From Takakia lepidozioides (Eukaryota; Plantae; Bryophyta), in the NCBI GenBank assembly GCA_030704615.1, contig CM060734.1:53940001-54004000 (forward strand): a DNA stretch of 64,000 nt. The letters are read 5' to 3'. The notes under the pieces are model-generated. The model was not told the origin of the DNA. It saw only the letters and a program-made list of their open reading frames with translations, and did no database searches. Below are positions 8,475 through 62,787 of the stretch, piece after piece; position 1 is the stretch's first letter, and the number at the start of each line of letters is the position of its first letter. The position numbers were made by a program, and so were the translations under genes.

Positions 8475-8642
8475 AGGAGAAACCTACAGAGAGGAACCCC
8501 TAGTTAAACCCAGGAGCGAACTCCTCACCTTCTCTTCCGCAAACTGGAAATTGCTGTATACACAACTTCCAGTGTGCTTCATACTTCTTGTGATACATGA
8601 ATTGGTGCTCAATTCCTTACAGCAACCGCAAGACTAAGAGAA

Positions 8643-11630: not shown

Positions 11631-12483
11631 TGATAATGGCTATGCTACGAGGGACAGACAACGAGGGTCACAATGGGACATACCGGGTAGTGATGGACGT
11701 ACACTACCTGAGCCACAGGCAGAGATGGCTAAGTACGCGGTACTTAGCCAATGGCGGGACAAGGGTACATTACCACGAGAGCAGTAGTGGGTAGTGTAGT
11801 AACCGTGAGCCGTGAACCACAATATCACATGGTCACGTTAGCATCGGCTTTAACCAATAGAGGGAGTAGTGGACCGTTTACCACTATGGCTCACGACCAC
11901 TACAACGAGCCATTTTTTAACAAGCCTTTTAGGTTGCGTAGGCAGTTAGGCAAACGGTCATTAACGACCGCAGGCTGTAACGGCTCTTTCGAGCATAGTA
12001 TAAAAAGACTGCACGCAACTCAAAGGTGTGCAATATGAGTATCAGGGATCAGTGTGTACTTCTGTGATGATGTGATGAGCTCTGAAGTAAAGCCATGCTA
12101 TTTGAAGTATCTCTGTGTAGAGTGAATGTGAGATGGAGAGAATGTGCATTATGAGAGAACGTGAGATGGTGAGAATGTGTATCATCTCAGAATAGTTCTT
12201 GTTTTCTCTTGACTACCATCTGCTTGTATGAACCAAGAGGCTTCAGTCCTTTCGACTAAGATCTTTTATGCTAAAGAGACTGTAGATTGGGTTTAATCAA
12301 TAGGATTAAGTAGCCTGCAGGGATATGGCTTCATACGACGTTCATGGTTTAGCTATCCTTAAAATGATTACTTCGTAATCGTTTCTGAAAGCATACCGTC
12401 GGACAACCTCTGTTGCATGTCTTAGGAAATGGGCAGTAGTGTTAATAGCCTGTTTTGTCTAAGTCATAAACCAGCGGTTAATA
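11631..12483 (+). repeat. 3' LTR
   Basis: Direct repeat of 485-1338, preceded by PPT AAAAGAAGGGGGGGGGAA. Confidence 0.95.
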
Positions 12484-12488
12484 ACATT

Positions 12489-13760
12489 ATGTGCCGATGG
12501 TTGGAGCTCTGTCACAAACCGACCATTATTCAACATCATGCTCGTATGTCCAGCGGGGGAACAATTTATAGGAGCTATTGACACAACCGGGGAACGAAAT
12601 GATGCACGTTACCAGTTTTTGGTGCTATCGAAAGCCATTGACTTTGTTCGACCGGAGAAAATTGTGCAAATTTGTACGGACAATACCTCGAACATGAGAA
12701 ATATGGCCCAATTACTTTTGGCTCAGTACCCTCACATGTATTATCAAGGATGTTGTGCTCATATCCTCGACCTACTGTTAGAAGATTGGGGAAAAGAGCA
12801 ATGGGTGAAAGACCTTGTGAAGTAGGTCAAGTTTGTTGTGAAGTTCATCCGAAACCACCACATGCCTTTGGCAATATATAGGAGGTACGAACCAAAATAC
12901 AACCTAAAGAATCCAAGGGAAACTCGGTTTGCCACCAACTTCCTGATGGTGGACAGGTTGGTGACTGTGAGGTCCGCGCTCGAGCACACTGTTATTGACC
13001 CACAGTGAGAAGTCCACGTACGGACGTTGCGGGACTCTCGGAAGAACAAGCCACTGAGCAAAAGTCAAAAGGTCAGAAAGACCATTCGATCAGATGATTT
13101 TTGGTCCAAGTGCGAGAATTTTGTGCACATGGTGGAACCAGCCCTTGCTGTGTTACGGGAGTTCGATGGAAAGAAACCAGTTATGGGAAAGACATGGTTG
13201 CTATTGAGGAACTTCAACAACATGTATTTTCAGTGAAAGACCCTCCATTCTCACTAGATGCAGAGTTGGCGAGAAGAGCCGAGGCGGCTTTTGTAAAATG
13301 ATGGAAAATGGCCACTACAGACTTACATGGTGCTGGGGCATTGTTGAATCCATTTCTACTCGACAACAACATGTTGAGAGATGATGTCGATGCGAAAGCG
13401 GGATTGATACGGACACTCATGAAATTGGCCCCTCCAAATCAGGGGGAGAGAGCTATATCGGAGTATCAAAGTTTCTCGGATCGTCGTGACCCTTTCCACA
13501 ACCTTCCGAATCCAAAAGAACTTAACATGCAGCCGCATGAATGGTGGGATTTGATTGGCGCCGGAGCAAGCCCTATCGCAAAGCGCGTTCTTGCTCAAGT
13601 GTGCTCCGTGTCTTCCTGTGAACGTAATTGGAGTAGTGCATAGCATTCATTCGTGCATAGCAAGATTTGGAACAGGTTGCATCCGGATAGGGTCGAGAAA
13701 TTGGTATATGTGTATACCAATTCAGGGCTATTACGGGCTCAAGCGGGGGATGATACTAAG
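12489..13760 (+). pseudogene. hAT transposase, catalytic and dimerisation part
   Basis: DGW, VQICTDN, CCAHILDLLLED, ETRFATNFLM, EWW...G and SSCERNWS motifs; several stops. Confidence 0.9.
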
Positions 13761-15137: not shown

Positions 15138-16574
15138 CATAGGATGCTTAACACCACCACTTGAGGAGGTTCCTAGCGGAGAATGGTTGTGTCCACGATG
15201 CCTTGGACATAGGTAGTGGGCATAACAATGGTGGAGTTGACAAGTGATCCAAGGTATAGCTGGTGGGAGCTCAACGCCATGGATACTGAATTGAAGATCA
15301 TGGATTGCAAGCAGGTGACTAACGATGGGGCTCTTTTTGCACCCGGCCTCTTGATCCATAGTCTTCAGAACATTGGAACATGTGCAATTGAAAACCAAGC
15401 AATGATCTTATTGAGATCATGGATACTTGTCAGCAATCCGGTGTTAGAGGGAGGTTGATTGCAGCCTAGAGTGTCCATAATGCGACACAATCACGAGTAC
15501 ATGAAATGTCCTTAAGTTGGCGCGAGTTTTGAAAAATTAGATTTTGGACCGTTGGATGAAGTTGATCCAGACCGTCGGCCAAAAGTACCGTGTCAAAAAA
15601 ATATGGGCGGGCTTTTCAAAAATAAATAAATAAATAAAATTTAAATTAAATAAAAAATAACGAAATTCTCAAATCTAATTCATCTATGCCCTCAACCTAT
15701 GGGAAATGCGTGTTTTTTGGGAAGGCAGTTCTTGTAAACCTATGTTTTTCATGTAGTAAAGCTTAATACAAAAATAACTAATTTCTATGCTCTTCAAAAG
15801 TCCCTAACATTTTATGGACTACATATTTTAGTGTAAGATAAGGCATTCTAGATTCCTCAAAATAGGGGTGATCATAACGTGAGTCCTTTTTTATAGTGGC
15901 ATTGAAAATTGACCAAGAACAAAGTACATAATCATCAGATTATGGACTAAAATATTTTAATAAGGACTTTTTAAAAAGTCCTTAACTTTCAATATACTTA
16001 GTATTTTGAAATGAAACTTGAAAGAGTGGGTGAAGCCTCTAGTGCATATTATCTTTGAGTCCTTTATTCGATTGAAGAGTGTGAATGTATATCAGATTCA
16101 GTCTATATACAGGAAAAACTGTGTTGTGACAGCTAAAAATGGACACTGTAGGCTACAACGACCCGAGACCTAATCACTAGCTAGGGGGGCGATTGTGGCA
16201 TAGCTTTCTAGGATTGTGTGCATAGAATGTGTGTTGGACAACGATGTATGTTGTGGCACGATGCTTAGGTGCACGACAGCTGTCATGGTTTTAGTCACGG
16301 TTAACTAGAATTACCTACTTCTAGTTAACTATGTCATTTTGGATATTTGTATTTGTATTTTGTGTGTTGGGACTTCATTTGGTCATATGCCAAGTGAGGT
16401 GTCAAGCCTCACTTGGGATATGGGGATGGTTTTCCCCTTGTGAGGGTTGAGGAGGGCTCATCTTCTTGTAGTTGAGCCTCCATGAGCCTCTCTCACCTCC
16501 ATAGCTCTAGGTATTGAGAGGGAGTGTGGTGAGGGCTTTGTAGGATGGAGGGCACGATGCTTAGGTGCACGACA
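15138..16574 (+). mobile_element. 3' remnant of a PHD/DNMT-type gypsy-like element (PHD end, 3' UTR, PPT, end A, GC, end B, short second end A)
   Basis: CLTPPLEEVPSGEWLCPRC matches the PHD at 37200-37298; CTAGCTAGGGGGGCGAT; CACGACA-GC-TGTCA junction at 16272-16285; 24-nt direct repeat at 16255-16278 and 16551-16574. Confidence 0.8.
15469..16148. mobile_element. Tc1/mariner-like non-autonomous element
   Basis: TA on both sides; short TIR (G/C)AGTGTCCAT; AT-rich; removing it restores continuity of the host 3' UTR. Confidence 0.65.
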
Positions 16575-21400: not shown

Positions 21401-21722
21401 AGAGACTGACATACGTATCTAAATCTGCTGAAATGCCTCCTTGGTTTAAAGTCTGTAGAGCCTCTTTCAGTCTGCCTGCCTCACAAAGCATCTTCACATT
21501 CCCAGAAGTGCCAGAAGAGGCATTGTGGACTCCCTCTCTTGATCCTCTTCCAGAAGCTGTGGTCATGGTTGAGGTGCCTGATTTTATCAAGTGTGCCGCT
21601 GCAGATGCTGCCTTCAGTTGACCATCTACCCATGCAGGTTTCTTGTAGCTATTGATCCACAGGGAATCATAGGTAATCTTGTGCCTGAAATCTGGCCCTC
21701 TTGGATGAATCTGGACCCACAC
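18483..21722 (-). CDS. PLS-type PPR-E-DYW editing factor, copy 1 (main exon 21710-18483; 6 PLS triplets); upstream PDF exons extend to ~23300
   Basis: P/L/S motifs, E1/E2, PG box, HSE, CxxC and terminal DYW; N-terminal half-PDF IHPRGPDFRHK...LW...PAWV. Confidence 0.95.
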   Translation of the reverse strand: MWVQIHPRGPDFRHKITYDSLWINSYKKPAWVDGQLKAASAAAHLIKSGTSTMTTASGRGSREGVHNASSGTSGNVKMLCEAGRLKEALQTLNQGGISADLDTYVSLLHKCIKMKGLEAGKQVHTHIIQSGFTPNVFLLTTLVNMYVKCGSIMDAHQVFNRMPQRSLITWNIMLAGFTKHGCGRNALETYEQMMREWVKPNHITFVSVCNACASLGALEKGKEVHGDIIKAGIVPDVILNTALVDMYAKCGSIEDAKGVFDTMAERDVVSWSAMIAGYAQQGRGMEALETYEQMMWEGVKPNHITFVCICNACASLAALEKGKAVHGDIVKSGIVPDVILNNTLVDMYAKCGCIEDAEGVFDSMAERDVVSWSALIAGYAQQGRGIEALETYEQMMCEGVQPNHITFVCVCNACASLAALEKGKEVHGDIVKSGIVPDVILNTALVDMHAKCGSIEDAKGVFDSMAERDVVSWSAMIAGYAQQGRGMEALETYEQMMEERVKPDRITFVCVCNACASLAALEKGKEVHGDIIKAGIVPNVILNTALVDMYAKCGSMEDAKGVFNNMSERNVVSWNAMLAGYAQQGRGMEALETYEQMMCEGVKPDHITFVCVCSACASLAALEKGKEVHGCIAQAGIVPDVILNNTLVDMYAKCGCIEDAKGVFDTMAERNVVSWSAMIAGYAQQGRGMEALETYEQMMGEGVKPNHITFVCICNACASLAALEKGKEVHGDIIKAGIGPNVILDTALVDMYAKCGCIEDAKGVFDNMAERSVVSWNAMIAGYAQHGLHREVVQLFEGMQKNGLKPDSITFICVLSACSHAGLLSEGRRYFDSLSQDHGVTPTVKHFGCMVDLLGRAGQLDEAVDLINKMPINPDVVMWKALLGACRIHGNVEMAERAATSILKRDEQDAATYVLLSNIYAAAGRWDDTAKVRRMMKVRGVRKEPGRCCIEVGNRVHTFVGDDKLHPRIKEIHAELRRLSGQMKEAGYVPDTRFVLHDVGEEEKEFSLCHHSERLAIGFGLISTTPRTPLRLIKNLRVCGDCHTSTKFISKIVDRAIVVRDANRFHHFEDGICSCGDYW

Positions 21723-21892
21723 TCTATCCCTGCTCCTTCAGCATTCCATGCCTCTGCACATTCATCCTTGCCTTGCTGCTAGCAGCTGACAATGACAGCC
21801 TAGATTTGTTCTAGGACACCCAACTCAGCTTATCACACTAGTTCCTATGCTGAATTGCATCTGCTACTCTCTGTAATCTAACAGGCATTCAC

Positions 21893-25165: not shown

Positions 25166-28102
25166 TCACCAGTAATCCCCACAGGAACAAATCCCATCTT
25201 CAAAGTGGTGAAAGCGGTTAGCGTCCCGTACAACAATTGCTCGGCCAACAATCTTTGAGATGAATTTGGTGGAGGTGTGGCAGTCACCACACACTCGAAG
25301 ATTCTTGATGAGACGCAGAGGCGTCCTAGGGGTCGTGCTGATCAGCCCAAAACCAATGGCCAGCTTCTCACTGTGGAGGCAAAGAGAAAATTCCTTTTCC
25401 TCCTCCCCCACATCATGCAATACAAAGCGCGTGTCAGGCACATACCCCGCCTCCTTCATCTGCCCAGACAATCTTCTCAGCTCAGCATGGATTTCCTTAA
25501 TTCTGGGATGCAACTTGTCATCTCCAACGAAGGTGTGCACCCTGTTGCCAACCTCAATGCAGCAGCGACCTGGCTCCTTTCTAACCCCTCTGACCTTCAT
25601 CATTCTTCTCACCTTTGCAGTATCATCCCACCTGCCAGCTGCAGCATAGATGTTTGAGAGCAACACATAAGTCGCGGCATCCTGTTCATCCCGCTTAAGG
25701 ATAGATGTTGCCGCACGTTCAGCCATCTCCACATTGCCATGGATTCTGCAGGCACCAAGCAAGGCCTTCCACATCACAACATCTGGATTGATTGGCATTT
25801 TATTGATCAGGTCCACTGCCTCATCCAGTTGTCCCGCACGTCCAAGAAGGTCCACCATGCAGCCAAAGTGCTTTACTGTGGGAGTGACACCATGATCTTG
25901 ACTCAGGGAATCAAAGTAACGTCTTCCTTCATTCAGTAGGCCAGCATGGCTGCATGCAGAGAGAACACATATAAAGGTGATACTGTTCGGCTTCAAGCCG
26001 TTCTTTTGCATTCCTTCAAATAGTTGCACGACCTCCCTATGACAACCATGCTGGGCATATCCTGCGATCATCGCATTCCACGACACCACACTTCGTTCAG
26101 CCATATTGTCAAATACTCCCTTTGCATCCTCAATGCACCCACATTTCGCATACATGTCTACCAGGGCAGTGTCCAGAATGACATTTGGTCCAATTCCAGC
26201 TTTGATGATGTCACCATGCACCTCTTTGCCCTTTTCCAGGGCTGCCAGGCTTGCACAAGCATTGCAAACGCACACAAATGTGATGTGGTTGGGCTTCACC
26301 CCTTTCCCCATCATTTGCTCATACGTCTCTAAAGCCTCCATCCCGCGCCCCTGCTGTGCATATCCTGCAATCATCGCACTCCATGACACCACATTTCGTT
26401 CAGCCATATTGTTGAACACTCCCTTCGCATCCTCCATGCTCCCACATTTGGCATACATGTCCACGAGGGTGTTGTTCAGAATCACATCTGGTACAATTCC
26501 AGCTTTGGCGATGCAACCATGCACCTCTTTGCCCTTTTCCAGGGCTGCCAGGCTTGCACATGCACTGCATATGCACACAAACATGATGTGGTCGGGCTTC
26601 ACCCCTTCCCCCATCATTTGCTCATAGGTCTCCAAAGCCTCCATCCCGCGCCCCTGCTGTGCATATCCTGCAATCATCGCACTCCACGACACCACATTTC
26701 GTTCAGCCATATTGTTGAACACTCCCTTCGCATCCTCCATGCTCCCACATTTCGCATACATGTCCACCAGGGCAGTGTTCAGGATGACATTTGGTACAAT
26801 TCCAGCTTTGATAATGTCACCATGCACCTCTTTGCCCTTCTCCAGGGCTGCCAGGCTTGCACAAGCATTGCAAACGCACACAAACGTGATGTGGTTGGGC
26901 TTCACCCCTTCCCCCATCATTTGCTCATAGGTCTCCAAAGCCTCCATCCCGCGCCCCTGCTGTGCATATCCTGCAATCAGTGCACTCCACGACACCACAT
27001 CCCGTTCAGCCATAGTGTCGAACACTCCCTTTGCATCCTCGATGCTCCCACATTTTGCATACATGTCCACCAGGGCAGTGTTCAGAATGACATCGGGTAC
27101 AATTCTAGCTCTGACTATGTCGCCATGGACCTCTTTGCCCTTTTCCAGAGCTGCCAGGCTTGCACACGCATTGCAAATGCACACAAACGTGATGTGGTTG
27201 GGCTTCACCCCTTCACACATCATTTGCTCATAGGTCTCCAAAGACTCCATCCCACGCCCTTGCTGTGCATATCCTGCAATCATTGCACTCCACGACACCA
27301 CATCTCGTTCAGCCATAGTGTCGAACACTCCCTTTGCATCCTCGATGCTCCCACATTTTGCATACATGTCTACCAGGGCAGTGTTCAGAATGACATCTGG
27401 TACAATTCCAGCTTTGACGATGTCACTATAGACCTCTTTCCCCTTTTCCAGGGCTCCCAGGCATGCACACGCATTGCAAACAGAAACAAATGTGATGTGG
27501 TTGGGCTTCACCCCTGCCCCCATCATTTGCTCATACATCTCCAAAGCATTCCTACCACACCCATGCTTGGTGAATCCTGCCAACATTATATTCCACGTGA
27601 TCAAAGATCGTTGAGGCATTCTGTTGAACACTTGGTGAGCATCCATGATGCTCCCGCACTTAACATACATGTTGACAAGGGTGTTGAGTAGAAAAACATT
27701 TGGCGTGAATCCACTTTGGATAATGTGAGTGTGCACCTGCTTTCCAGCTTCCAGGCCTTTCATCTTGATGCACTTATGCAAGAGACTGACATACGTATCT
27801 AAATCTGCTGAAATGCCTCCTTGGTTTAAAGTCTGTAGAGCCTCTTTCAGTCTGCCTGCCTCACAAAGCATCTTCACATTCCCAGAAGTGCCAGAAGAGG
27901 CATTGTGGACTCCCTCTCTTGATCCTCTTCCAGAAGCTGTGGTCATGGTTGAGGTGCCTGATTTTATCAAGTGTGCCGCTGCAGATGCTGCCTTCAGTTG
28001 ACCATCTACCCATGCAGGTTTCTTGTAGCTATTGATCCACAGGGAATCATAGGTAATCTTGTGCTTGAAATCTGGCCCTCTTGGATGAATCTGGACCCAC
28101 AC
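25166..28102 (-). CDS. PLS-type PPR-E-DYW editing factor, copy 2 (5 PLS triplets); upstream exons extend to 30379
   Basis: Same architecture as copy 1; HSEKLA, CGDCH and DYW intact. Confidence 0.95.
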   Translation of the reverse strand: MWVQIHPRGPDFKHKITYDSLWINSYKKPAWVDGQLKAASAAAHLIKSGTSTMTTASGRGSREGVHNASSGTSGNVKMLCEAGRLKEALQTLNQGGISADLDTYVSLLHKCIKMKGLEAGKQVHTHIIQSGFTPNVFLLNTLVNMYVKCGSIMDAHQVFNRMPQRSLITWNIMLAGFTKHGCGRNALEMYEQMMGAGVKPNHITFVSVCNACACLGALEKGKEVYSDIVKAGIVPDVILNTALVDMYAKCGSIEDAKGVFDTMAERDVVSWSAMIAGYAQQGRGMESLETYEQMMCEGVKPNHITFVCICNACASLAALEKGKEVHGDIVRARIVPDVILNTALVDMYAKCGSIEDAKGVFDTMAERDVVSWSALIAGYAQQGRGMEALETYEQMMGEGVKPNHITFVCVCNACASLAALEKGKEVHGDIIKAGIVPNVILNTALVDMYAKCGSMEDAKGVFNNMAERNVVSWSAMIAGYAQQGRGMEALETYEQMMGEGVKPDHIMFVCICSACASLAALEKGKEVHGCIAKAGIVPDVILNNTLVDMYAKCGSMEDAKGVFNNMAERNVVSWSAMIAGYAQQGRGMEALETYEQMMGKGVKPNHITFVCVCNACASLAALEKGKEVHGDIIKAGIGPNVILDTALVDMYAKCGCIEDAKGVFDNMAERSVVSWNAMIAGYAQHGCHREVVQLFEGMQKNGLKPNSITFICVLSACSHAGLLNEGRRYFDSLSQDHGVTPTVKHFGCMVDLLGRAGQLDEAVDLINKMPINPDVVMWKALLGACRIHGNVEMAERAATSILKRDEQDAATYVLLSNIYAAAGRWDDTAKVRRMMKVRGVRKEPGRCCIEVGNRVHTFVGDDKLHPRIKEIHAELRRLSGQMKEAGYVPDTRFVLHDVGEEEKEFSLCLHSEKLAIGFGLISTTPRTPLRLIKNLRVCGDCHTSTKFISKIVGRAIVVRDANRFHHFEDGICSCGDYW

Positions 28103-28274
28103 TCTATCCCTGCTCCTTCAGCATTCCATGCCTCTGCACATTCATCCTTGCCTTGCTGCTAGCAGCTGACAATGACAGCCTAGATTTGTTCTAGGAAACA
28201 CCCAACTCAGCTTATCACACTAGTCCCTATGCTGAATTGCGCCTGCTACTCTCTGTAATCTAACAGGCATTCAC

Positions 28275-30935: not shown

Positions 30936-31104
30936 TTTTTTGAGTAATTTGAGCCGATCGTAGCTACGGTGTGAGCCTAGCCTCGTGAGCCCAGGAGCTG
31001 GAGGAGGGAGAAACAGGTCCTATAACTGACGACTGGGTTTAGAAGGAGTCCTATTATCGTGGAAGCACTTACGGCACTTAAAAAAAGCGGTATAGAAAAA
31101 TGGA

Positions 31105-31523
31105 TGCTCATTGTGAAGCTGACTGAGGTTCTGTTATTGAAGAAGAGGTGAAAAAAAAAATGTCGGTGAGTCATCATGAAGCTTATTTAGGGTTTCTTGG
31201 ATGAAGAAGAGGTAAACAAAATTTGGATGCTCATTGTGAAGCTTACTGACGTTTGCAATATTCCATCCATGGTGGATGGATGATGGATGGATGAAATATT
31301 GAAGGAGAGGTTAAAAATAATGCGGATGGTCATCATGAAGCTTATTTAGGCTTTGCTTGTGAAGAAGAGGTGGAAAAAAAAATGAGCTCTTATTGTTAAA
31401 CTTGTTCAGGTTTTTGTCGTTGAAGAAGAGATGGAAAAAAATGAGATGGTCATCATGAAGCTTATTTAGGTTTTTTTTTGTGAAGAAGAGGTGAAAAAAA
31501 AAAAAAACTCTCATTGTGAAACT
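31105..31523 (+). repeat. ~60-bp tandem repeat (TGAAGAAGAGGTGAAAAAAA...), left part
   Basis: Repeated units that resume at 44437. Confidence 0.85.
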
Positions 31524-31889
31524 TGTCGTGTGCATACATATCGCTACACAACTACATCGCTGTCCACAACCACACAACACATGTGCACACCAAACACTAG
31601 TCTATCACTAGTGCACCACTAGTGCAGCCACTAGTCCAACCACTAGGCTGTAACTAGCCACCACTAGTGCAGCCACTAGTCCATCACTAGGCTGCCACTA
31701 GTCAATCATAACCGCCCCCCTAGCTATAAGGTATCTGTTGTGGTGTAGTGACAACAACACCAATTGAGGGTGAAACAAGCAGTTACCCACCACATTTCTA
31801 TGAAGAAAGAGAGGGAGAAATGGAAATCCTAGAGGAACCAGCCACTGTGAGTTTACAAGATGAAGTGGTGACTGGATGGACAATCACAG

Positions 31890-32715
31890 CTGATGAGCTG
31901 TGAGAGTCGGCGGACCAATCGGACTGGGTGGAGCACTTGGACGCAACAGAGTTTTGTTATAATAACACAAAACACTCCGCAACGGGTGTTTCCCCTTTCG
32001 TATTGGTCTATGGAAAAGCACCTCTAGTGCCGACAAGTTGGGCTGCCCAAGACGTTGAGGATCCGGCAGCAGCAGCAGCGGTGTTGGAGGAACGTGAGCA
32101 CTTGTTGAAGCTCGCAAAGTACAACATTGCCAAAGCTAGGAAACGGTATAAACAACAGGCAAATCGGAAACGGAGGGAAATCAAGTTTGAGGCAGGCACG
32201 GAGGTCTGGTTGAACATCAAGAATTTTTGACTATCTCCGGAAGTGAGTCCGAAGTTCGTACCTCCGTATGCAGGACCCTTTCGCATCCGGAAGGTTATGA
32301 ATGGGGATGTGTATGAATTGGAGCTGCCGGCAAAGAACAAGGTGTATCCAGTATTCCACGTCTCCCTTTTGAAGCCTTCCTTCAAAGATGAAACGCGTCC
32401 GAATCGGCATCAAGTGTTGCGTCCACCACCTATGCTGTTAGATCATGAAAATGAACCTGAGTACGAGGTGGAGGCAGTGCTTAAGTCGAGGAGGTTCAAG
32501 AGGAGGCCAACCTCAAGTTGCAGAAAGAATTGGAGGACACCAAGGCTGCCCTGCAGCTAGCAAAGGGGAATCTGATTCGAGAAACGGAGTATCTCGTGAA
32601 ATGGAAGGGCTATCATCATGTGGAGGCATCTTGGGTACGTGCCTCCGAAATGGGGAACGCATTCGAGGCGGTTGCAGCTTTCGAAGGGCGACCTCAAAAG
32701 CGGAAGAAGCGTTGA
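31890..32715 (+). pseudogene. Chromovirus integrase C-terminus with chromodomain
   Basis: EFCYNNTKHSATGVSPF, YAGPFRI, YPVFHVSLLKP, YEVEAVL...EYLVKWKGY...SW. Confidence 0.9.
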
Positions 32716-32749
32716 TGGGGACATCAACCTTGGATCGTGGGGGAGGAAA

Positions 32750-33298
32750 TGCATGCTTAGCCCGGCTTAGCTAGCTCAGGAATCCGATTGCAAAAACTTG
32801 TGTTGTACAAATTTTGTTATAAATGAAATGGTTTCCAAATGTTGCGCCTCCTATTTTGTTTGGAATGGTGATGCATGGTATGGTTGGCTAGTGTGTAGAA
32901 TGCATGCTAGCTTACAAAAGTAGGAGAGGTAAATTGGATTAATCGTGTGTTTGCGTAGTGCCAAAATCGGGTGACTCCCATCCAAGGGGCAAGGAAACTT
33001 GCGCCTTCTTTGGGAGTTCACGTGCTAGTGCGCACCTGGCGCGTGCGCGTACTATAACTGCGCTACCGAGGGGGTTGCCTTGTAGTGCGGGCTAACGTGG
33101 AAGCTACGTGCTTCCGTTCACGTACTATAATTGTGTAGCCTCGGGACGAAGTCGTAGTGCGGCTTCGGCGTGTTCCCGTACCTTAGGCCATCATTCCAAG
33201 GCGGACCCAATTGTAGTGATTGGGGCGCACGGTTGGTTCAAGGTTATCTTCCTAGTCAAAAAAAAGTTCAAGGTGAACCTTTATTCAAGGTAATCCCA
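32750..33298 (+). repeat. Putative chromovirus LTR, with PPT upstream and Met-type PBS-like site downstream
   Basis: GGGGGAGGAAA then TG...CA then TGGCATCATGAGC; single copy, so boundaries are inferred. Confidence 0.55.
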
Positions 33299-34820
33299 AA
33301 AGTGGCATCATGAGCGGTCGCAAGCACTGTTGTTGCACTAAGGCGATTCGATCCTCGGGGAGGATCGTTCCTTGGCTGTGAAGTGGGCCAAGAAGAGTGC
33401 ACTGGGAGGAGCTTGAGAGGCTCCACCCTTGGCCGAGACTTGGAGGAAGTCGGCCGAACTAGCTAGTGGAGAGTAAAGTCAAGTGGGGGTTTGGTTTTTT
33501 GCCATGGGACGCCATGGTACGGAAACAAACTCCTTGATGTGGGACGCCACAACTTGGATGTTCGTTTCTACAAAATGGACAAGTCGATGAGGACATCGAC
33601 TCCCTGTTGGTAGGGGTGTGTGTCGCGGCCCTTTGCCTTGAGGGCAGGGGGTCGGGACACGAGAGGGGCTGCCTTTGTGGTGGGGGCGGTGGCAACAATA
33701 GATGCGGGGGCTGAAGCACCCTTGAGTGCCCAAAGGCACTCGAGGAGGCGGAGGCGCTCACTAGGTGGAGCCCCGCACACCGGGTTGCGGTGGGGGTGGT
33801 TCCTCGAGGGGTGGTGGTAGCTTAGCGGGACTTAGTGGGGGTGGCATAGGACTCACCATGGGGCGGAGACCTTGTGGTGGGAGTCGTGGGGAGTCTTGGG
33901 ACTCATCACGGTCCAATGGGGCCGTGGTGGGTGGGCCAAGACTCACCGCGACTCATCACTGGGAATCGAGGGTCTTCGTGGTGGTTCGCCATAAAAGGAT
34001 GGTGTTGTTTGTGGAACCCCCGCGGATAGTCATAGAAGTATATGTAGGGAGTAGTAACCCCGAGAACGGTGCAAGCCCATTGGTGACCAAAAACTAGTGA
34101 GTAAGCGAACGAGCCGGAAAGCGACCAAGGAGTGGGGAGCTATTCCGGACTGCCATCTACCAAAGGGAATTTCCACTAGGCCCAAATTGGTGGAGGGTCT
34201 GTCGCGGGAAGAAAGCGGGACCGTTATGTCCCGGTGAGCAGCCGAAGCTCCGAGTTGGCCCGGTGGCCAGGTTGGGAGTTAGGCGCACGCATCAAAGCGA
34301 GTAACTATGACTTGAAGGGGAGCTTACCGAAGTGAGGTGCGCAACAGGTCATCACCTCCAACCTCACCACATGAGAAACAAAGATGGTCTGACTGGTCAT
34401 CAACCCAGTCTCACCATCGACAGCATGCTCTAGGGTTGGATTGGCGATCAAGCCCGAGTCAACCATCTATAAAATCAAGCGCCCACACAAAACTAGCATG
34501 GCGCACAATCAAGCATGCAGGTATGGAGGGGATCTAAACATAAGAATGAAAACAACAACTCCCCCACACAAAAAACAACTCCACAATGTCGCTCCTGCAA
34601 CCCAGCCCAAACCCCGAATAACTCTTGCCTCCACCTACGGAAAGGTCTCGGCCTACAGAGAAGGTGGAAAGCTATGAGGAAGGGAAGCTAAAGCAATGCC
34701 TATCCCCAATATGCCCTCATCCCAACACTTTTTTTTTCCTCTCTTCTCTCACTTGCATGACCATGAGAGCATCCTGTAGACACTCCTCAAACCGCCCTTC
34801 ATGAGCTCATAAAATAGCGT

Positions 34821-35357
34821 GTGAGACACGATGACCGTTCACCTTTGGCAGTGGTCAACAAGGTGGGTCAACCACAAGCAGCACTACCTACACTGCTCAG
34901 TTTCCCAGGATCGCATGCTTTCCGAGATAATGGACCTGGCCTCCTGTGGGAGGCTCAGTTGCAGCAATTAGTGGAGCCTAATGTCGACAAGCGAGAGCGG
35001 GCTATGGGTTTTTCCACTGGGACCACGGCGGTGCCTTCTCTTTCTGAGGCATCACGTCGTCAGGTGTTGGGGCAAGCAATGGATCTAAATTGCTTGACCT
35101 GGATTATCAGCTTGGCTATGGCTGAGCAACGAAGAGTGCGGAGTGCACTTCCCTTGACGGTCTCTCTGCCTACCGAGGCGGTACAGGCAGTGAGTGGGGG
35201 CGAGCCGGTGAGGACCATAGGGTGTAGACATCCATGGCACACGTGGGAGGTGCTCGAGGTTCAGAGGGAGTTGGCAACCAAGGCGGCTATGATGGATGAG
35301 GTTGGGGATTCTTCTCGGGTTGAGGAGGTCCTCAAGTATAAGATGATGGGAGGATGA
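34821..35357 (+). pseudogene. C-terminal half of retroelement C5-cytosine methyltransferase (motifs IX-X), inverted relative to the N-terminal half
   Basis: RERAMGF...T...LSEASRRQVLGQAMD. Confidence 0.8.
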
Positions 35358-35576
35358 GGCCTTGTCATTGACTGAGCAGGCAGGGAGTACTGCTCAAGAG
35401 GTTGCGACATAGCAACCACGGGACGCGTCCTCTACCTCTAAGTTTGCTGGACTTAAGGTTGCAGTAACGAAGGGCAATTGGGAGCCTGACATTGGACCTA
35501 TTGTCACTAGAGGAGAGAAACGACGTATACGGCGGTTCCTGAGGCTTACAGGAATTGCTTTGCCTCTCGTGCTACG

Positions 35577-37298
35577 GTGGAGGAGCATGAGAGACATGTT
35601 CAGGTTGTGCATCGACCGGGTTTGGTCAATAGGGATGCGGATGGCTTGAGTCGCAATCCATGCACAAGCCAGCAGGATGACACTGGAGTTCGGTGGCATG
35701 GTGAGACGGACGAGGAGATGGTGTCAGGATGGCATGCATCTGCCTTTTTGTGTATCTTGGCATCGGGAGGTCAGGTTGGACCTACAACAGGGATGACTGT
35801 AGACAGAGTGTCTGAGGACCCTGAGGCTAGTGATGAGCCAGGTGGTGCCAGAGATATACATGAGGATTCGGTTGTGTTGGACTACCTCCGCACTGGAGAC
35901 ATGGCAGCTAGTGTGACTGCCCAGGATTGTTATCAGATCCTACAATGAGCCAAGAGGTTCAAGTGGGAGGTGATACACCTGCTTCGAGTGTGGGAGGATG
36001 GTCGGGTGAGGATTGTGCCTCACCCAACACAGCATGCACGGTTAGTGTGGCATGCCCATGCGGAGTTGGGGCATTTTGGAGTGCGACGCACTGATAGTTT
36101 ACTGCAAGGGCAGTATTGGTGGCGTGGTATGCACACAGAGGTGCAACAGTTCATGGCTAGGTGCATGGTGTGTGACAGGGTGCGTGCTTCATTCAACGCC
36201 CCTACACCATAGTTGCATCATTTACCCATCATGGGATTGGGCTACAGGTGGAGTCTTGACTTCATAGGGCCTTTGCCACTGACGATGCGTCACCACAGAT
36301 ATGTGTTGGTGATGGTGGAGCACTTCTCCAAGTGGATTGAGTTGGTTCCATTGCCTAACAAGGCTAGTGAGGGGGCTGTGTATGCATTCTTGGATCGTGT
36401 GCTTAGACGATTCGGTGCTCCAGCTGAGGTACTCATGGACCAAGGGAGAGAGTTCTTGGGGGAGTTTCAGGCTTTGTGTGACAAAGCCTTGATAGACCAC
36501 CGTACCACTTCTCGGGATCATCCTGAGGCCGAGGGCTTGGCAGAGAGAGTGGTGCAGACGGTGAAGAGGGGTTTGCGCAAGTATGGCTTGCAAAAAAGAC
36601 ACCTAGGAGATTGGGATCTTCAGGTACCTTGGCTAGCCATGGGCTACAGGTTTAGCAAGCAAGCATCACTTGCCTCCTTCTCACCATATTTCCTTCTCTT
36701 TGGCCGAGAGCCAGATTTGTCTACGTCTATTCGCATGGAGGCTGCAGTAGTCCTCAACCTTGATGATCCGGATGTGTGGACACAAGCATGTGCCCAGCGG
36801 GCAGAGTTGTTCAAGAGAGTCATGCCTATGGCTTTTGAGAACCTTGCCATTGCACAGCACCGTGATACGTTGAGGTATGCCACTATACGTGGTGGAGGAT
36901 ATCGTCCTGGGGTTCGGAGGTTTAGCCCTGGTGACTATGTTTATTTGCAGCAGACTGCTCCTACGACTCTGGATGTTACTGCAGGGCGTGTTATTCTGAG
37001 GGTTCGAGAGGTGTTGCCCTCAGGGGTCCTGATCTTGGAGGGTCGGGATGACATGACTTGGAAGGACCATGTGCGTAATTGTGCGCCATGTCACCTTCCC
37101 AATGTCGATGGCAGAGTTGACCCAAACTTGGCAGTGGTACCTGCAGGTTTGAGGTGCATGCTCTGTGGGTCTGCCAAAGGAACAGCCACCATGTTGGTGT
37201 ATGATCGATGCTCAAGGGGTTGGCATATGGGATGCTTGACACCACCTCTTGAGAAGGTTCCTGACGGTGATTGGTTGTGTCCACACTGCTTGGGATAG
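35577..37298 (+). pseudogene. End of RNase H, DDE integrase and C-terminal PHD finger (RT and most of RNase H deleted at ~35575)
   Basis: VVHRPGLVNRDADGLSR; HAELGH...CMVC; SLDFIGP, MDQG and GLAE; CMLC...CSRGWHMGCLTPPL...WLCPHC. Confidence 0.9.
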
Positions 37299-39296
37299 TG
37301 GCAGTGGACATGTCTGGAGGACATGGGAGGCCAAGCTCATAGGAGTCAATACATGAGATCCCAAGCTCAAGTTCACAGGTTGCAAGACGGCGACTAACAA
37401 TGGGGCAACTCTTGCACCCGGCCTCTTGATCTATCGAGTTTGAGTGTAGTAGGGATAGTGGTGGAGAACTTAGTGAGGCTATGGTCACTATCACATCTTG
37501 TGGCTACCTGGACTTAGAGGGACCTAAGCACTAGCTAGGGGGGTGATTGTGTGGACTAGTGACTGCCATAGTGGGCAGCATAGTGGCAGCCTAGTGACTG
37601 ACTAGTTGTAGCCTAGTGGTTGGACTAGTGGTGGACTAGTGATATACTAGTGTGTGGCGTGCACATGTGTTGTGTGGTTTTGGACAGCGATGTAGTTGTG
37701 TAGCGATATGTATGCGCACGACAATGAGAAGCGGTTCAGCTTAGAATGCAGGGATCCATGCATGAGCCTATCCAAAGCGGATAGAGTGCAAAGGCGAACA
37801 GGTTGCAGGTTTGCAATGGATAGAGAGACGGTCAACCTGTATTGAATGGTGGCGTTACATAGCTCAATGCTATGGCAACCAAATTTGGGCTTCTAGTGTG
37901 AAGGGAAGGAGATGCTGGCCACAAGTGGGCGAACTGGTGGTCATCTTCTTCAGCTGCAGGCTGAGTTAAGAAGCTGTTGGAAAGTGGGTTGCGCATGGGA
38001 AGCTAGCGTGTTGTAGGTTGGAGATAATATGATCAGCTCCAGGTATTTCTGCCCGAAACTAGTTGTTGCGGGTAGATGAGGAGCAGCCGAATAGTGGAGC
38101 TGTGAGGGGATGCATCGCAGCCTGTTGGGAGCTTCAGCTCCAAGCTCATGAAGAGGTATGAGTGAAGAGAGGGGGTTGGTCCCTCTTGTGTGCAAATCAG
38201 TGCACTTGTGAAGCATGTGCTTGAGTTGGAAGTTTCAATCTAAAACTCTAGCACTGTAAGGGCTCTTGGAGTGGCAAGAGTGGGGCTGGAAGGGCAGCAA
38301 CTAGGCATCCTAGAGCCAAGGAATGTGCAGTAGAACTGCTGGTACACCAAGGTTGTAAAGGTGTGTATTTTCAGATTTATTTTTGTGAGCTTCATGAAGA
38401 AAATGGAGCTTGTTGGGCAGCATATAGCTTGCTTGTTGAGTTGGGGGTGCTTCTAGTGGGCCGTGAGAGCCCAAGAGAGCATGGCAGCAGGTCTGGTGGC
38501 TTCACTGAAGCCATAGCTCGTTGATAGCAGGTGCAGGAGCAAACCCCAGCTCGGGGAGAGCTCGGGAATGCGTGGGAACACTCGGGAACGCATAGGAACT
38601 CGTGGGGAGTTCCAGGGAATGCAAAGAACAGTGGCCATAGCCGTAGTCGTGGCCGTGATGGGCCATGGGGGCGGTATCACGAGATACCACGAGCCCAGGC
38701 CGTGACTGTTGACCGTGACCATTGACCGTGACCGTGGGAAGCCGTGGCGCAGACATCACGGGTGGGCATGGTGACCAGATCGTGGGAATGGCAGGCTGTA
38801 AAGGCTCGTGGGCGTGGTACCACGGGGTATCACGGGGCAGCCCGTGGCCAGTGAGCGCCTAGGGCGGGCCATGAGGAGTCGTGGCGGTTAGAGCCACGGA
38901 AGGCCGCGAACAGACAGAATGAAAAAAATAAAAAAAACTTTTTTCACTCGTTTCGTGGGACCTTGATGGGGAGGCTGGGCTATGAAGAACAACGGTTTTG
39001 AGCTAGCTGATCCGGCAAAAAAGCTAGAATTGCCTCCCTGTTGCCATTTAACAAAGGGGATTACTTCCCTGCAGGTAATCTTTTGGGGTTTTCAGCCCAG
39101 TTCTTAACTATGGGGGAGACCAGCTTGCAGGTAATTCCTTTGGACAGAATGTTGTTGGGGCCTATATGTACCTCCATTTGCTCCATTTTTTAACCTTCAG
39201 TGGATAGCGTGGTTTCCTAAGGTGGTTCCATTCTGAGGAATGGCTGGTGGACATACGGAGGCACTGGTGGACCCTGTGGAGGCTTGCATGGGGCCT

Positions 39297-39940
39297 TCCC
39301 TGTGTCCAAAATGCTATGCACTGTGAGGTGTGCAGGCCGCTGCACCCCATCAAATGCACGCTTAAGCAGTGCGGGTGACATCAAGTTAGTCCACCATAAC
39401 CGTGGACGATGAGCCCGTAATCCCACTGCAGCTTCATCCAGCAACACTGCTGACCCAAGCCACGACCGGACTTGATGCACACTGGCAATCACCCTGGCCC
39501 GAGAATCGCCCATCAGTGGCACATTCTCCAAGATATATGCTGAAGATATAGCTTGATGAAGCTGCAAGTGGCGCAAAACCCGCACCATCTCCCAAACAGA
39601 CCCGACCTCGAGTCTTGCAATCCATTGTCATGTCTGGCTGATGAATGCCCTTGGCAGGGCCAACGTGCCACTACCAGCTCAATGGAGCCAACCCGCTCCA
39701 AATCCTGCGCCCCCAACATCAAAATGTCTGCTGGCAAGGCCTGCTGATATCCACAAACTGCAGCCACCGGCAACAATTCAGGGTACCGCTGTACCAACTG
39801 AGCAACATGGCGAAGTGAAATGCGTCGTGCAGTCTCATCCCTCTCCACATACAGGTAACGCCGAACTCGTACACCTGCCTCTAACACAGCAGCCAATCTG
39901 GTGCTGATCCCGCCAAACAAGTCCAGAAGACAAATGCCTT
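39297..39940 (-). pseudogene. N-terminal half of retroelement C5-cytosine methyltransferase (motifs I-VIII)
   Basis: LLDLFGGIS (I), YVERD (II), WPCQGHS (IV), ILENVP (VI), RAHRPRLWWTN (VIII); one frameshift. Confidence 0.88.
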
Positions 39941-42836
39941 CATCCGGATACTGCCACACAATAGGTGTGGTGTCCAATGGAGACAACTGAGGTGGTCCTG
40001 GTGTAATCCTCGCACTCTCCTCCTCTCTTGATGGTACAAAAGCCTCCACCCAGGCTTGTTGTACCCGTCGATCAGCAACCCGCTGCAAATCCTTGCTCGT
40101 GCCCCACAATGGAGTCTGAGCAACCATGGCAGGCAACTCTGCCATATCATACATGTCATCATGTTCTCCTGGAGGTATGTCATCCTCTGAATGAGCGTTT
40201 CCCTCAAGCAACTCTCCAGGCCAAGTCACTGCAGCTGTGAATGCTGCTAGTGTCGGCATCTTGCCCCGTTGGGCAACCGCAATTCCTCCTATAAACGTCA
40301 CAGGGAGCTGCACACGCCGGCCCTCCCCTGACTGCCATCCAGGCCTATAAGAAGCTGATTCTTCCCAAAAATCCAGGGTGAAGCCCATGGGATACAACAC
40401 TGCCCCACTAACCAGGACATCGTACGAGACCGCGTCTGTCACAATGGCCTTGGTTCGCATCACTGAGCCATCTGTAGGGTGATCCGGCCGTAATCTGATA
40501 ACCATCTCACGTCGTGTCATGCCCCGAGCCTGCTCCGATCCTCCCAGAGACGTCTATATCTGGAAAGGACAAGGCTCCATATCCGCCTCCGTGAGGCCCA
40601 AGCCTGCAATAGCAGCTCTGCCCAGCATCAATGGTTGAGCTCCCGAGTCCAACAAGACCCGCAGTGGCCGATACCTCTTGCCTGCCGGTCCACTCAAACA
40701 GAAAATGCCATCCTGGTTGTCTAACATGACAACTCTAGGTGTCACCATGGCGCGTTCAATGGCTGGTCTAGCTGGCAGCTCCATCAACCTGGCAGCTGCA
40801 GCTTGCCATGGCGCCGCAGTGGCAGTCTTAACCCTCAAATCCGAGGATCCCTCCGGCACTACACCTCCCATTATCTCCGCAGAAGATGAAGTAACCTCCC
40901 CACTCTCACAGAGTGTAGCTGCCAGCCTGAACACCTCAGCTGGTCTTACCCCCGGCGTCGCAATCATGGTAGCCGAGAACAATGGAGTCTGGTACATAGA
41001 TGTGGCCGCTCCGAGCAACACACTACCTGCCGTAGCCTTGGCAACACTGGGTAGTGGTGCTACCCGTGTAGCTCTCCCCAATGACATAGTAACCTCCGCC
41101 TCGGTAATAGTCGGGCGAGAACTAGGTGCCAAGGATGGCGTCGACACTGTCTCCGCCAGTGTGAATGACTGAGGAAGCCTAGCCTGACGGCTTGCCTCCT
41201 CACGCTGTGGATCCAACTCCACCTCTGCACCTCGTGGCTCAGGAACTCGTGCTGCTCCTCGAGTCATGGCTGCAGCAGACTCCACCTGCACTAGTGGTAG
41301 TGCTGCTCCGCACATGAATCCCATGCCTCCCATATCTCCTCCCTCAGGAGCAGGAGGTGGACCATCCGGCCTTGGAGCCGGTACCACCTGAGCTGTAGCC
41401 ATGGCAGCGAGCCTCTGCTCTAGCTGCTGAAGCCGGTTGGCCATGCCTTGGTCAACACCCTGACCTTCACGTCCTTGGCCATGTTGAGCTTGCCCTTGGC
41501 CTGCACCTCGTGGCTGGCCACCTCGTCTTCTCTGGGCTACTCCACCTTGCCCCCGGCCACCATTGTTCCCTTGGAACTGGCCTGGCGCAACTCAGGATGC
41601 AAACCATAACACTGGGCCTCTCCATGCCCGTGTTTGCCACAATGCCCACACTGCAACTATGCAGGCTGTGCATGTGCCGGCCCTTTGCCTCCCTCTGGAA
41701 TCCTTCTTGACATGGGATCCTCCACATGTCCAGCACACCACATCCGCCCATTGTTGGCCAGCAAATGAAGGGAGAGACCCCTGCATCTGAGGTCCTCTCT
41801 GCCCTTCCCTGAGCTTCACCTAAGCCCCCTTGTTGCCTTGAGCACGTTGAGGTAGTGGTTGGCTAGGAGCACCACTACCCCGTGGTGTCTCCTTAGCAAA
41901 TCCCACCATGACCACTCGTTCCTCCACCATGTTGAGCTCTATTCGCTCTGCCAGCAAAAACACATTTGCTAAGGTGGGTTGGGCCGCTTGTAGGAGAGTT
42001 GCATCCCGCACCCTTCTCCTCAGCTCCTTGTTCAATATCCCATACCAGAATTGGACTGCCTGAGCTTCCGTAACCCCTTGGGTTACATTTATCAAGCGCC
42101 TCATGCGAGTGAAAGCCTCCCTCAAGCTCTCGGTCGGCTTCCGTTGGAACTCTTGCAAGCTCCGCAACTTCTCTGTCTTCACCCCTTGGTAGTTCCCTCT
42201 CAACTCTTCGAAGAACTCCACAACAGGGTTGAAGACAGACACGGGTACTAGTGCTGGCGCGGTAGTGGCTTGGGTGGACGTCGTAGCTACTGTACCACTA
42301 GTCCCACTAGTCCCACTGCTGCTTGCTGAAGTTGCCGTGCAAGGCAGGTGTAGCCACTACCCTCGTGGCTCTAGTGCCCCTAGTGATGGAGACATAGTCG
42401 GGTGACCAATACATCCTCCACTCCTCGATCTCAACCTCATGCCCCCGCCTGAACTCATGGTAATCATCCATAGGCGGCCCCTCAAGGTGCTGAAACAGCC
42501 CCTTCCATGCCATGAAAGGCGTAAATAGTTGTGGATTGTGCATTTGCTGCAAATCACGCCAACTATCAAACTCTTGGAAAAAATCGTCCAACTCGATGGT
42601 GCCCACCGCCCCAGAGTACCTTCGTGGCCCCTTGGTAGCTCCATACATCTCCTCCATTGTGTCCCACAACAATGGCAAGGAAACAACTTGCACCGCCGGT
42701 ATGAGTCCTCCTGATTCACAATCCTAATCAGAATCTTCCGTAGAAGACACAGGAGGTGAAGGTGGCCTAAACCGCACACCTCGTCTCGTGTACCCACTAG
42801 TATCGCTAGTGCTCGAACCGGCACTGTCCCCAGCAA
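39941..42836 (-). pseudogene. gag, zinc knuckles and aspartic protease of the DNMT element
   Basis: YSG...LDDFFQEF, FQRKPTESLREAFTRM, CWTCGGSH, VLLDSGAQP; fragmented. Confidence 0.85.
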
Positions 42837-43371
42837 CTAGTGGTACCTCCGTGTTGACACTCAACCGGTCATGAACATGTCCTTAACCCCATTTCCACAA
42901 GGTAAACCGGGTAGAGAACCTGTTGCGGCTTATGGTTTGGAATACTAAGTTCCTAACATAGCCTACACCTGTACCTGCATCCACCGCAAGCACTCCTATG
43001 GTTGGCTGGTCACAACCTCCAACCTCACCACATGAGAAAACAATGATGGTCTGGCTGGTCATCACCCCAGCCTCACCATCGACAGCATGCTTTAGGACTG
43101 GCCGGTGATCAAATCCGGACCAATCACCTATAAAAACAAGCGCCCACACAAAATTAGCATGGCGCACAGTCAATACACGAGATCCCAAGCTCAAGTTCAC
43201 AGGTTGCAAAACGACGACTAACGATGGGGCAACTCTTGCACCCGACCTCTTGATCTATCGAGTTTGAGTGTAGTAGGGATAGTGGTGGAGGACTTAGTGA
43301 GGCTATGGTCACTATCACATCTTGTGGCTACCTGGACTTAGAGGGACCTAAGCACTAGCTAGGGGGGCGAT

Positions 43372-44049
43372 TGTGTGGACTAGTGACTGCCATAGTGGGC
43401 AGCATAGTGGCAGCCTAATGACTGACTAGTTGTAGCCTAGTGGTTGGACTAGTGGCTGGACTAGTGGTGGACTAATGATATACTAGTGTGTGGCGTGCAC
43501 ATGTGTTGTGTGGTTTTGGACAGTGATGTAGTTGTTGTGCGATATGTATGCGCACGACAGCTGTCAAGTTATTTACCACTAGTGTGAAACTAGCTAGGAA
43601 ATAGCTACCTTTTACATATTGACATTTGGGATTGGCCCAAGTGTCAATCCAGGGGTCAAGGCAGATTTAGGCCCTGGGAGTGGTTATCTTCACGGCAAGC
43701 GCGGGAGGCTCATCTTTCTCGAGTTGAGCTCACCGCGCCTAGCTATGGCGCCGTAGTGTGGATTCCCCATGGCGTGGGGTGCACTTGGCTTGACTTGTAT
43801 TTGAGTGATGAGGTTATATATGCATGAGTTTATGCTTCAGCTTTGTGAGCTCGCATGAGCTTGTGCTTGTATTCTTCTTCTTTATCACTCGAGAAAGATG
43901 AGCCTCCCGCGTTTGCCGTGAAGATAACCACTCCAGGGCCTAAATCTGCCTTGACCCCTGGATTGACACTTGGGCCAATCCCAAATGTCAATATGTAAAA
44001 GCTAGCTATTTCCTAGCTAGTTTCACACTAGTGGTAAAATAACTTGACA
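43372..44049 (+). repeat. Internal end A-GC-end B junction followed by a fold-back of end B
   Basis: 43372-43559 repeats 37548-37723; palindrome GACAGCTGTC at 43556-43565; 43562-43722 is inverted at 43888-44049. Confidence 0.9.
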
Positions 44050-44436
44050 TCATGAAAACACAAGTGCTACAAAAACAACTCGAACCTGACACTCACAGAC
44101 TCGAGCTCATCTTTCTCGAGTGATAAGGAAAGAAAGATACAAGCACACAAGCGCTCTCAGACTCACACACTTGCACATGAAAACATCACTCATATATTAA
44201 GTCGAACCAAGTGCATCCCACGCCATGGGGAATCCACACTACGGCGCCATAGCTAGACGCGGTGAGGCTCAACTCGAGAAAGATGAGCCCACTGTGATCT
44301 GCCGTGAAGATTACAACGCCAGGTGCCCAAACATATATTGGCCCCTGGATTGACACTTGGGTCAACCCCAAATGTCAATATATCAAAACTAACTATTTCC
44401 TAGCTAGTTTCACACTAGTGGTAAAATAACTTGACA

Positions 44437-44920
44437 AACTTGTTCAGGTTTTTGTCGTTGAAGAAGACGTGAAAAAAAATCAAATGGTCATCATGAAGCT
44501 TATTTAGGCTTTGTTTGTGAAGAAGAGGTGAAAAAAAAATGAGCTCTCATTGTGAAACTTGTTCAGGTTTTTGTCATTGAAGAAGAGGTGAAAAAAAATG
44601 AGCTCTCATTGTGAAACTTGTTCAGTTTTTTGTTATTGAAGAAGAGGTGAAAAAAAACTAGATGGTCATCATGAAGCTTATTTGTCTTTGTTTGTGAAGA
44701 AGATGTGAAAAAGCAATGAGCTCTCATTGTGAAACTTGTTCAATTTTTTGTTATTGAAAAAGAGGTGAAAAAAAATCAGATGTCATCATGAAGCTTGTTT
44801 AGGCTTTGCTTTTGAAGAAGAAGTGGAAAAAAAAAATAAGCTTTCATTGTGAGACTTGTCCACGTTTGGCAGCCCCTAAACCCAAAAATGTGAGACTTGT
44901 CCAGGTTTTTGTTATTGAAG
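44437..44920 (+). repeat. ~60-bp tandem repeat, right part
   Basis: Same unit as 31105-31523. Confidence 0.85.
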
Positions 44921-54147: not shown

Positions 54148-54328
54148 GTGAATGCCTGTTAGATTACAGAGAGTAGCAGACGCAATTCAGCATAGGAACT
54201 AGTGTGATAAGCTGAGTTTGGTGTTTCCTAGAACAAATCTAGGTTGTGATTGTCAGCTGCTAGCAGCAAGGCAAGGATGAATGCATGATTTGTGCAGAGG
54301 CATGGATAGCTGAAGGAGCAGGGATAGA

Positions 54329-62607: not shown

Positions 62608-62787
62608 TCTATCCCTGCTCCTTCAGCTATCCATGCCTCTGCACAAATCATGCATACATTCTTGCCTAGCTGCTAGCAGCTGACAATGACAGCCTAGATT
62701 TGTTCTAGGAAACACCCAACTCAACTTATCACACTAGTTCCTATGCCAATTGCATCCGCTACTCCCTGTAATCCAACAGGCATTCAC

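Follow-up and report, generated by a model that had tools for sequence, protein, structure and literature searches.

A gypsy-type retroelement of Takakia lepidozioides with copies bounded inside the long terminal repeat: a probable case of integration from end-joined cDNA

How does a retroelement with the proteins of the Ty3/gypsy group come to lie in a chromosome with both of its ends inside its own long terminal repeat (LTR)? The question is raised by positions 31524..44436 of a 64,000-nt stretch of Takakia lepidozioides DNA (the whole stretch is called the window here), in which self-comparison and inspection of the sequence reveal two nested elements, an outer and an inner copy. Each begins with a segment B (TGTCAAG) and ends with a segment A (CACGACA). 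The outer copy lies on the minus strand, from TGTCAAG at 44436 to CACGACA at 31524, between target-site duplications of AACT (44437..44440 on the 5' side, 31520..31523 on the 3' side). The inner copy starts with TGTCAAG at 44049 on the minus strand, preceded by ATGA (44050..44053), and ends with CACGACA at 37723 on the plus strand, followed by ATGA (37724..37727). Direct checking of the sequence located every motif listed in an initial annotation of this DNA, including these two insertions and their 4-bp duplications; the chance of a 4-bp match is 1/256 per copy. Segments A and B of the outer copy are approximately 82% identical to those of the inner copy. Both window copies are broken, and no gag-pol of this permuted gypsy family belonging to the outer copy itself was found. 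This is a Ty3/gypsy-type element in which both termini of the inserted copies lie at a palindrome internal to the LTR, and we think it probable that its two-LTR complementary DNA (cDNA) has its ends joined to each other and is afterwards opened again at that palindrome by its own integrase.

The ends of related copies were examined in 80 metagenome loci fetched via an integrase alignment, identical flanks being merged before ends were counted. A or B of two families, with approximately 63–80% and 47–54% integrase identity, was matched in 53 of the loci; the other 27, which are short, truncated or from other families, lie outside the counts. Two further loci were set aside: L007, which reads polypurine tract (PPT)-A-GT-B-primer-binding site (PBS) at a contig end and was taken as a collapsed repeat assembly, and L041, not counted as an LTR end as it breaks off at B55. 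Eight alga-like loci have one end only (L048, L054, L059, L067, L070, L073, L075, L077), and a scan of viral contigs gave one weak locus, which was not used. All 36 distinct right ends that reach a flank stop at A, 17 of them as PPT-A and 19 after a join of B to A, written B/A here (17 A-B-A, 2 B-A), and none stops at the end of B; six further right-end chains break off, three of them at contig ends. All 12 intact and distinct left ends start at B (11 found by script plus L078, whose decayed PBS was missed by the pattern; L020 and L021 have no start). A unique flank was met by none of 71 rows at the start of A and by none of 41 rows at the end of B. Insertions therefore begin and end at CA/GC/TG and the provirus is permuted, as the initial annotation had supposed, and the two complete direct outer LTRs that distinguish ordinary Ty3/gypsy elements, which it had named as the picture expected if the window copies were artefacts, appear at 0/36 right and 0/12 left ends.

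These copies take the form B-internal-A or B-internal-A-GC-B/A (L055, L040, L058 and L078 read B-internal-A-B-A), with 4-bp duplications at their flanks. The description of the element as lacking paired repeats cannot be kept, since 19/36 right ends carry B/A and complete copies of this class have both B and A twice. Ten copies of relatives have both ends on one contig, making 12 with the two window copies; exact 4-bp duplications flank nine of these, including L055 (AAGG), L014 (ACTA), L032 (CCAA), L056 (TCCC), L058 (TTTA), L076 (ATGG) and L078 (ACAA), two more are matched at 3/4 positions (L003 and L040) and one is unmatched. We considered and ruled out that separate A and B elements had been inserted in tandem, as the duplication flanks the B start and the A end as one unit.

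Contigs of public Takakia sequencing runs, aligned to two window stretches, gave a similar picture; runs X1–X4 come from one sample, possibly the source of the window, and X5 and X6 from other studies. Among the matches listed, varied flanks precede TGTCAAG in 34, 16, 15 and 5 contigs of X1, X2, X4 and X5 (agreement 0.61–0.77), while CACGACA is followed either by GC and B or by varied flanks, the latter in 65 (agreement 0.43) and 17 (0.40) contigs of X1 and in 3 and 5 contigs of X5. Also among the matches listed, loose ends before the start of A read as the end of B in X1 (14 contigs, agreement 0.73), X5 and X6, that is in three studies, and joints lead from 43885-43887 back to 43370-43378 in X1 and X4. 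In X6 the depth entering A from the PPT (75.1) and from B (72.3) together approaches that of the body of A (142.3), which leaves little room for ordinary starts, although depths are not copy numbers, and no copy number was taken from depths summed over contig runs. The Takakia contigs agree with the ends seen in relatives, with rare ordinary ends possible beyond the matches listed.

The window copies could in principle be a rearranged or mis-assembled two-LTR element of ordinary kind, flanked by duplications that arose by chance. The inner copy is truly rearranged, with an inversion, an inverted LTR block and the loss of reverse transcriptase, and repeat contigs in metagenomes can be chimeric. 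We nevertheless consider this explanation extremely improbable, given that the duplications flanking the B start and the A end are exact in 9/12 copies, that relatives have no ordinary end among 36 and 12 distinct ends, and that contigs from three studies agree with this. Moreover an ordinary two-LTR gypsy element lies in the same window at 485-12483 (854-bp LTRs, 97% alike, with TG...TA ends, a 5-bp duplication ACATT and by eye a tRNA-type primer site) and is assembled normally, thus serving as an internal control. The feature is real and clade-wide, and not an artefact.

What, then, is the LTR of this element? Segment A starts immediately after a purine tract wherever it was seen in the window (tracts at 16177, 37531 and 43355), as had been annotated. 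In the inner copy the PPT occupies 37531..37546 and the 3' segment A, identified by self-comparison and from the sequence, 37547..37723, both on the plus strand; PPT and 3' A of the outer copy together span 31524..31726 on the minus strand. Segment B ends in TTTATCA, after which comes a stretch complementary to B146-164. The 5' B of the outer copy is 316 nt long (44121..44436, minus strand, TGTCAAG to TTATCA), with a predicted primer segment at approximately 44273-44291, and its predicted self-priming PBS lies at 44105..44120 on the same strand; 19/19 positions pair if G-U is allowed, and 0/300 shuffles did as well. Three related families have the same arrangement in different letters (L055 22/22, L071 19/20, L007 15/15), and in 8/12 copies a TATA-like box lies 23–36 nt upstream of the complementary segment. 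Across the relatives 46/71 A-start rows follow a PPT and 17/41 B-end rows precede a PBS-like site.

From these borders the LTR used in reverse transcription is A+GC+B, bounded by the PPT and a predicted self-priming site, which agrees with the annotation in treating A and B as parts of one LTR. The CA-GC-TG motif lies in the middle of this LTR, upstream of the predicted transcription start, and therefore represents a putative internal cut site and not a circle junction. In the window it occurs as CACGACA-GC-TGTCAAG at 43553..43568 (core GACAGCTGTC, a putative palindromic integrase site), exactly as annotated, and it is conserved in relatives: a diverged relative in the window has CACGACA-GC-TGTCATG beginning at 16272, and CGACA-GC-TGTCA is shared by families whose LTRs are otherwise different. 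The ends defined by reverse transcription are not conserved, one family starting with ATAC and ending with CAAT. The 3' end of the diverged relative (15139..16574, plus strand) comprises a 3' untranslated region (UTR), the PPT at 16177, A', GC, part of B' and a second A' end at 16574, and reads as a deleted A-GC-B/A end; an intact B/A join is not visible within the window.

In alga-like relatives outside the plant group, a palindrome of GACAGCTGTC or GGCAGCTGCC lies 60–130 nt after a G-tract (L048:14203, L070:3617, L054 at approximately 2820). To judge from these loci, each with one end only, chlorophytes may possess the internal site too.

If CA-GC-TG is written into the LTR, the junction formed afresh in each round should be sought elsewhere, and the initial proposal that CA-GC-TG closes a circle has to be given up. 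In all 28 rows A and B are separated by 2 nt (AC 10, GC 9, GT 7, AT 1, TC 1), nearly always GC or a transition product of GC, as for a templated site in mid-LTR; the end-to-end join is B/A. In one family 5/13 distinct B/A joins are blunt and 8/13 have insertions or deletions, two of the latter carrying an extra T or TC that matches the start of the PBS. In the other family 3/6 share one common form and the rest differ, one having a 21-nt insert that ends in PPT-like bases. Large deletions affect 2/19 joins. A variable B/A join, as opposed to the fixed GC spacer, is consistent with the ends of a linear cDNA having been joined.

The B/A join might instead be transcribed and inherited, with strand jumps between split repeats in the manner of PAT and Ngaro elements and no fresh end joining. 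The layout equals a split-direct-repeat layout already described (PMC5890265, Fig. 4c legend), and some joins do recur unchanged, namely the 5/13 blunt joins of one family and the 3/6 alike in the other. This would account less readily for joins that are heterogeneous against a fixed GC spacer, or for the PPT and PBS-like sites that bracket an ordinary LTR. A terminal A inherited through the RNA would be expected to form a lineage of its own; instead the two A segments of one element (A1 and A2) pair in four forks with bootstrap support of at least 87, there is no split of A1 from A2, and terminal and internal A's form no separate lineages. Identity of A1 to A2 is 0.908 within elements vs 0.877 between elements (11 loci, two of which represent one insertion). 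We regard inherited joins as quite improbable.

Under our preferred reading, in which the cDNA is joined and then reopened, transcription would run from the middle of the 5' B to within the second B, and the 5' end of the RNA would prime, as in Tf1, on the complementary site just after B. Reverse transcription would then yield an ordinary linear DNA, bearing two A-GC-B LTRs and offering integrase no site at their outer ends. End joining would link the B end to the A start, and a covalent circle would be the substrate on which integrase makes a staggered cut (CA^GC^TG), leaving two CA-3' ends, each with a 5' overhang of 2 nt as in a processed intasome, to be inserted 4 bp apart. Copies of the B...A form would be dead ends, arising out of one-LTR circles, through cuts made at both sites or by A-A recombination at a later time. 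Only the B...A-GC-B/A form would have the terminal redundancy needed for another round, and the lineage would therefore depend on the join.

The order of the last two steps could be reversed, integrase cutting a linear two-LTR cDNA in its 5' LTR and inserting both cut ends, after which host repair would join B to A within the chromosome and no covalent circle would form. This would give the same B...A-GC-B/A product, with 4-bp duplications and ragged B/A joins, and cutting of both LTRs of the linear molecule would yield the B...A form directly (17/36 right ends). However it requires a chromosome break at each productive insertion, and failed repair predicts more large B/A deletions than the 2/19 observed. 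It likewise leaves the lack of a third class of copies (B/A-GC-B...A) unexplained, and we consider it rather unlikely.

Several observations weigh against joining followed by reopening. The circle, the RNA ends and the integrase cut are all inferred, and sequence alone fits joining first as well as cutting first. Two equal cut sites should also generate a class B/A-GC-B-PBS...PPT-A, which is found at 0/12 left ends, 6/6 two-ended PPT-A copies starting with B-PBS; a bias that we cannot explain is therefore needed. The pairing of A segments is modest, the element's own A1 being the top or tied match for only 5/11 A2's; it could be mimicked by gene conversion, and the second family has no such signal (0.942 vs 0.943). 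In the window copy the TATA-like box is not at the place seen in others, and PBS pairing is weaker in decayed copies, at least 21/300 shuffles doing as well in 6/12 tested. The flanks of L028 are unmatched, and the end counts come from relatives at 47–77% integrase identity and not from the Takakia genome.

In its widest form, the reading is that a gypsy clade of the green lineage has moved its integrase site from the ends of the cDNA to a palindrome in U3. An end-joined two-LTR circle reopened at the 5' LTR would be obligatory to its replication, its layout would have converged on that of DIRS and PAT elements, and it would have its own methyltransferase and PHD reader and be invisible to LTR finders. 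We lean slightly towards this fuller account.

Linear cDNA is the accepted integration substrate of retroviruses and LTR retrotransposons, LTR circles being mostly seen as dead ends, and what contrary evidence exists for circles concerns only side routes used by foamy virus and human immunodeficiency virus type 1 (HIV-1). The lineage described here, a natural one, seems to rely on cDNA end joining, whichever the order of cutting and joining. It offers a defined 10-bp substrate for asking whether a DDE integrase itself makes a double-strand staggered cut, and a model for the origin of split-repeat elements from ordinary LTR elements. Tools that need paired TG...CA LTRs miss, or place wrong boundaries on, a high-copy family in seed-free plants.

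Among known systems the closest in gene order is Ty3/gypsy itself, with gag, protease, reverse transcriptase, RNase H and DDE integrase in that order (seen in L007, the window copy having lost reverse transcriptase), a PPT, a 4-bp duplication and predicted self-priming; the differences are that the inserted ends lie inside the LTR and that the ends defined by reverse transcription have no conserved TG...CA (PMC6317226, as far as consulted). The PBS arrangement reads as self-priming of Tf1 type, which Neumann et al. (2019) predicted for plant Tcn1 elements (PMC6317226, in the parts consulted). The self-priming Tcn1/Tf1 chromoviruses may resemble the present elements in this predicted respect, with a complement of the PBS in B in four families and a predicted transcript 5' end, but have a chromodomain where these have a PHD finger (same parts of PMC6317226). 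That survey, as described there, required paired LTRs with TG/CA ends and therefore could not collect permuted elements (PMC6317226). PAT and Ngaro share the split direct repeats, and a circular intermediate has been proposed for them, whereas the present elements have a DDE integrase, 4-bp duplications of varied sequence, no tyrosine recombinase match and a terminal join that looks end-joined (compared with the portions of PMC7192593 consulted). No Pfam match to a tyrosine recombinase was found in the four L007 open reading frames (ORFs) of at least 150 aa or in 13 element ORFs of the window. Ginger DNA transposons combine a gypsy-type integrase with TG...CA ends and short duplications, and are integrase-only, without gag or reverse transcriptase. 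The window element differs in having gag, protease, a PPT and, in its relatives, reverse transcriptase, and its two ends match in inverted orientation over only about 5 bp.

Cleavage by integrase of palindromes in 2-LTR circles has been described for foamy virus and HIV-1 (PMC1180852, PMC4372172, both as far as consulted). The likeness would be a DDE integrase that opens a palindrome to give processed ends; those viruses have an ordinary provirus and a palindrome formed where the two LTRs meet, while here the palindrome lies in the middle of the LTR, proviruses are permuted and the element would have no other route (compared on the same portions of PMC1180852 and PMC4372172). The nearest published description is that of KnitGypsy-Dnmt3 from Klebsormidium nitens, to which de Mendoza et al. 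(2018) assign DIRS-like repeats with Gypsy domains (PMC5890265, Fig. 4c legend), the DIRS layout being given as A-coding-B-A-B (Fig. 1 legend). By that description it shares with this clade both a C5 methyltransferase in pol and DIRS-like split repeats (PMC5890265). Nowhere in the text searched is a cut site or a mechanism given, or a target duplication or mode of priming described, with no occurrence of 'target site' in the main text or of 'TSD' in the supplements (PMC5890265). The layout thus appears to have been noted once in print, in that legend and without explanation, and the mechanism is proposed here. No account of this integration route was met in the literature searched, which mostly left out subscription journals, Repbase reports and theses, so an earlier description may exist. 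A named Klebsormidium protein was not present among the 120 matches listed or among three matches to the methyltransferase region.

Of the 32 rows in an integrase tree, the 12 marked as permuted all belong to a single group of 18 (99/98). The group also holds a Coleochaete protein, adjoining the window copy, and named chlorophyte proteins lie outside it; the root is unsure because the only outgroup is a long branch. The intact relative L007 has two long ORFs encoding protease and C5 methyltransferase, then reverse transcriptase, RNase H, rve integrase and PHD finger. These (L007:976-8229) are in the same frame with a single stop between methyltransferase and reverse transcriptase, making read-through or separate initiation possible. 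The methyltransferase precedes reverse transcriptase in the plant-like L007, L055 and L032, and lies between RNase H and integrase in the alga-like L048, L067, L073 and L077.

The inner window copy encodes gag remnants, protease, C5 methyltransferase, the end of RNase H, integrase (rve, E 1e-14, with D,D(35)E-type spacing) and a PHD finger, of which gag, protease, RNase H end and DDE integrase had been named in the annotation; reverse transcriptase is absent according to tblastn with related proteins. On the minus strand lie the gag remnants (41595..42836; Retrotrans_gag E 7e-4, below the curated cut-off), the protease region with its LLDSGA motif (40068..40832; ORF translation and tblastn) and the N-terminal part of the methyltransferase (39294..39941; tblastn to P0186, P0040 and P0043, which match PF00145). 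The C-terminal part of the methyltransferase (34821..35129, tblastn) is on the plus strand, as are the RNase H end, H2C2 zinc finger, DDE integrase core and PHD finger (35586..37298), with no reverse transcriptase upstream. The two halves are contiguous in related proteins (P0040 residues 963-1055 and 1059-1161), which shows that a block of approximately 34818-39293 has been inverted, splitting the gene; this is why the ends of the inner copy lie on opposite strands.

A second inverted block lies within the 5' part of the inner copy. The copy opens with B1-163 (43887..44049, minus strand), which stops at the predicted 3' end of the primer and is 97.6% identical to 43562-43724. There follows, on the plus strand, 3'UTR-PPT-A-GC-B with one whole LTR (43168..43887; self-comparison and sequence), its A-GC-B portion (43371-43887) consisting of A at approximately 43371-43559, GC at 43560-43561 and B at 43562-43887. 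Across 43168-44049, the junction between B1-163 and the reverse of B-GC-A-PPT-3'UTR thus falls exactly on the predicted 3' end of the primer, and the other breakpoint has 6-bp microhomology. The arrangement reads like a fossil of primer and minus-strand cDNA, although a DNA-level switch at an inverted repeat would look identical.

The outer element was inserted into an A-rich tandem repeat of approximately 120 bp (31082-31523 and 44437-44870). Antisense within its 3' part, at 31904-32712 on the plus strand, is an integrase C-terminus with SH3 and chromodomain from another gypsy family. Elsewhere in the window an intronless PPR-DYW gene region is present in four recent copies (18483-21737, 25166-28117, 54314-56659 and 59671-62622), which have repeat units of 303 bp and sit in segmental duplicates 91–94% alike; genes of this kind hint at an origin in a seed-free land plant. 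A decayed coding stretch at 12490-13740 resembles, by eye, a hAT-type transposase.

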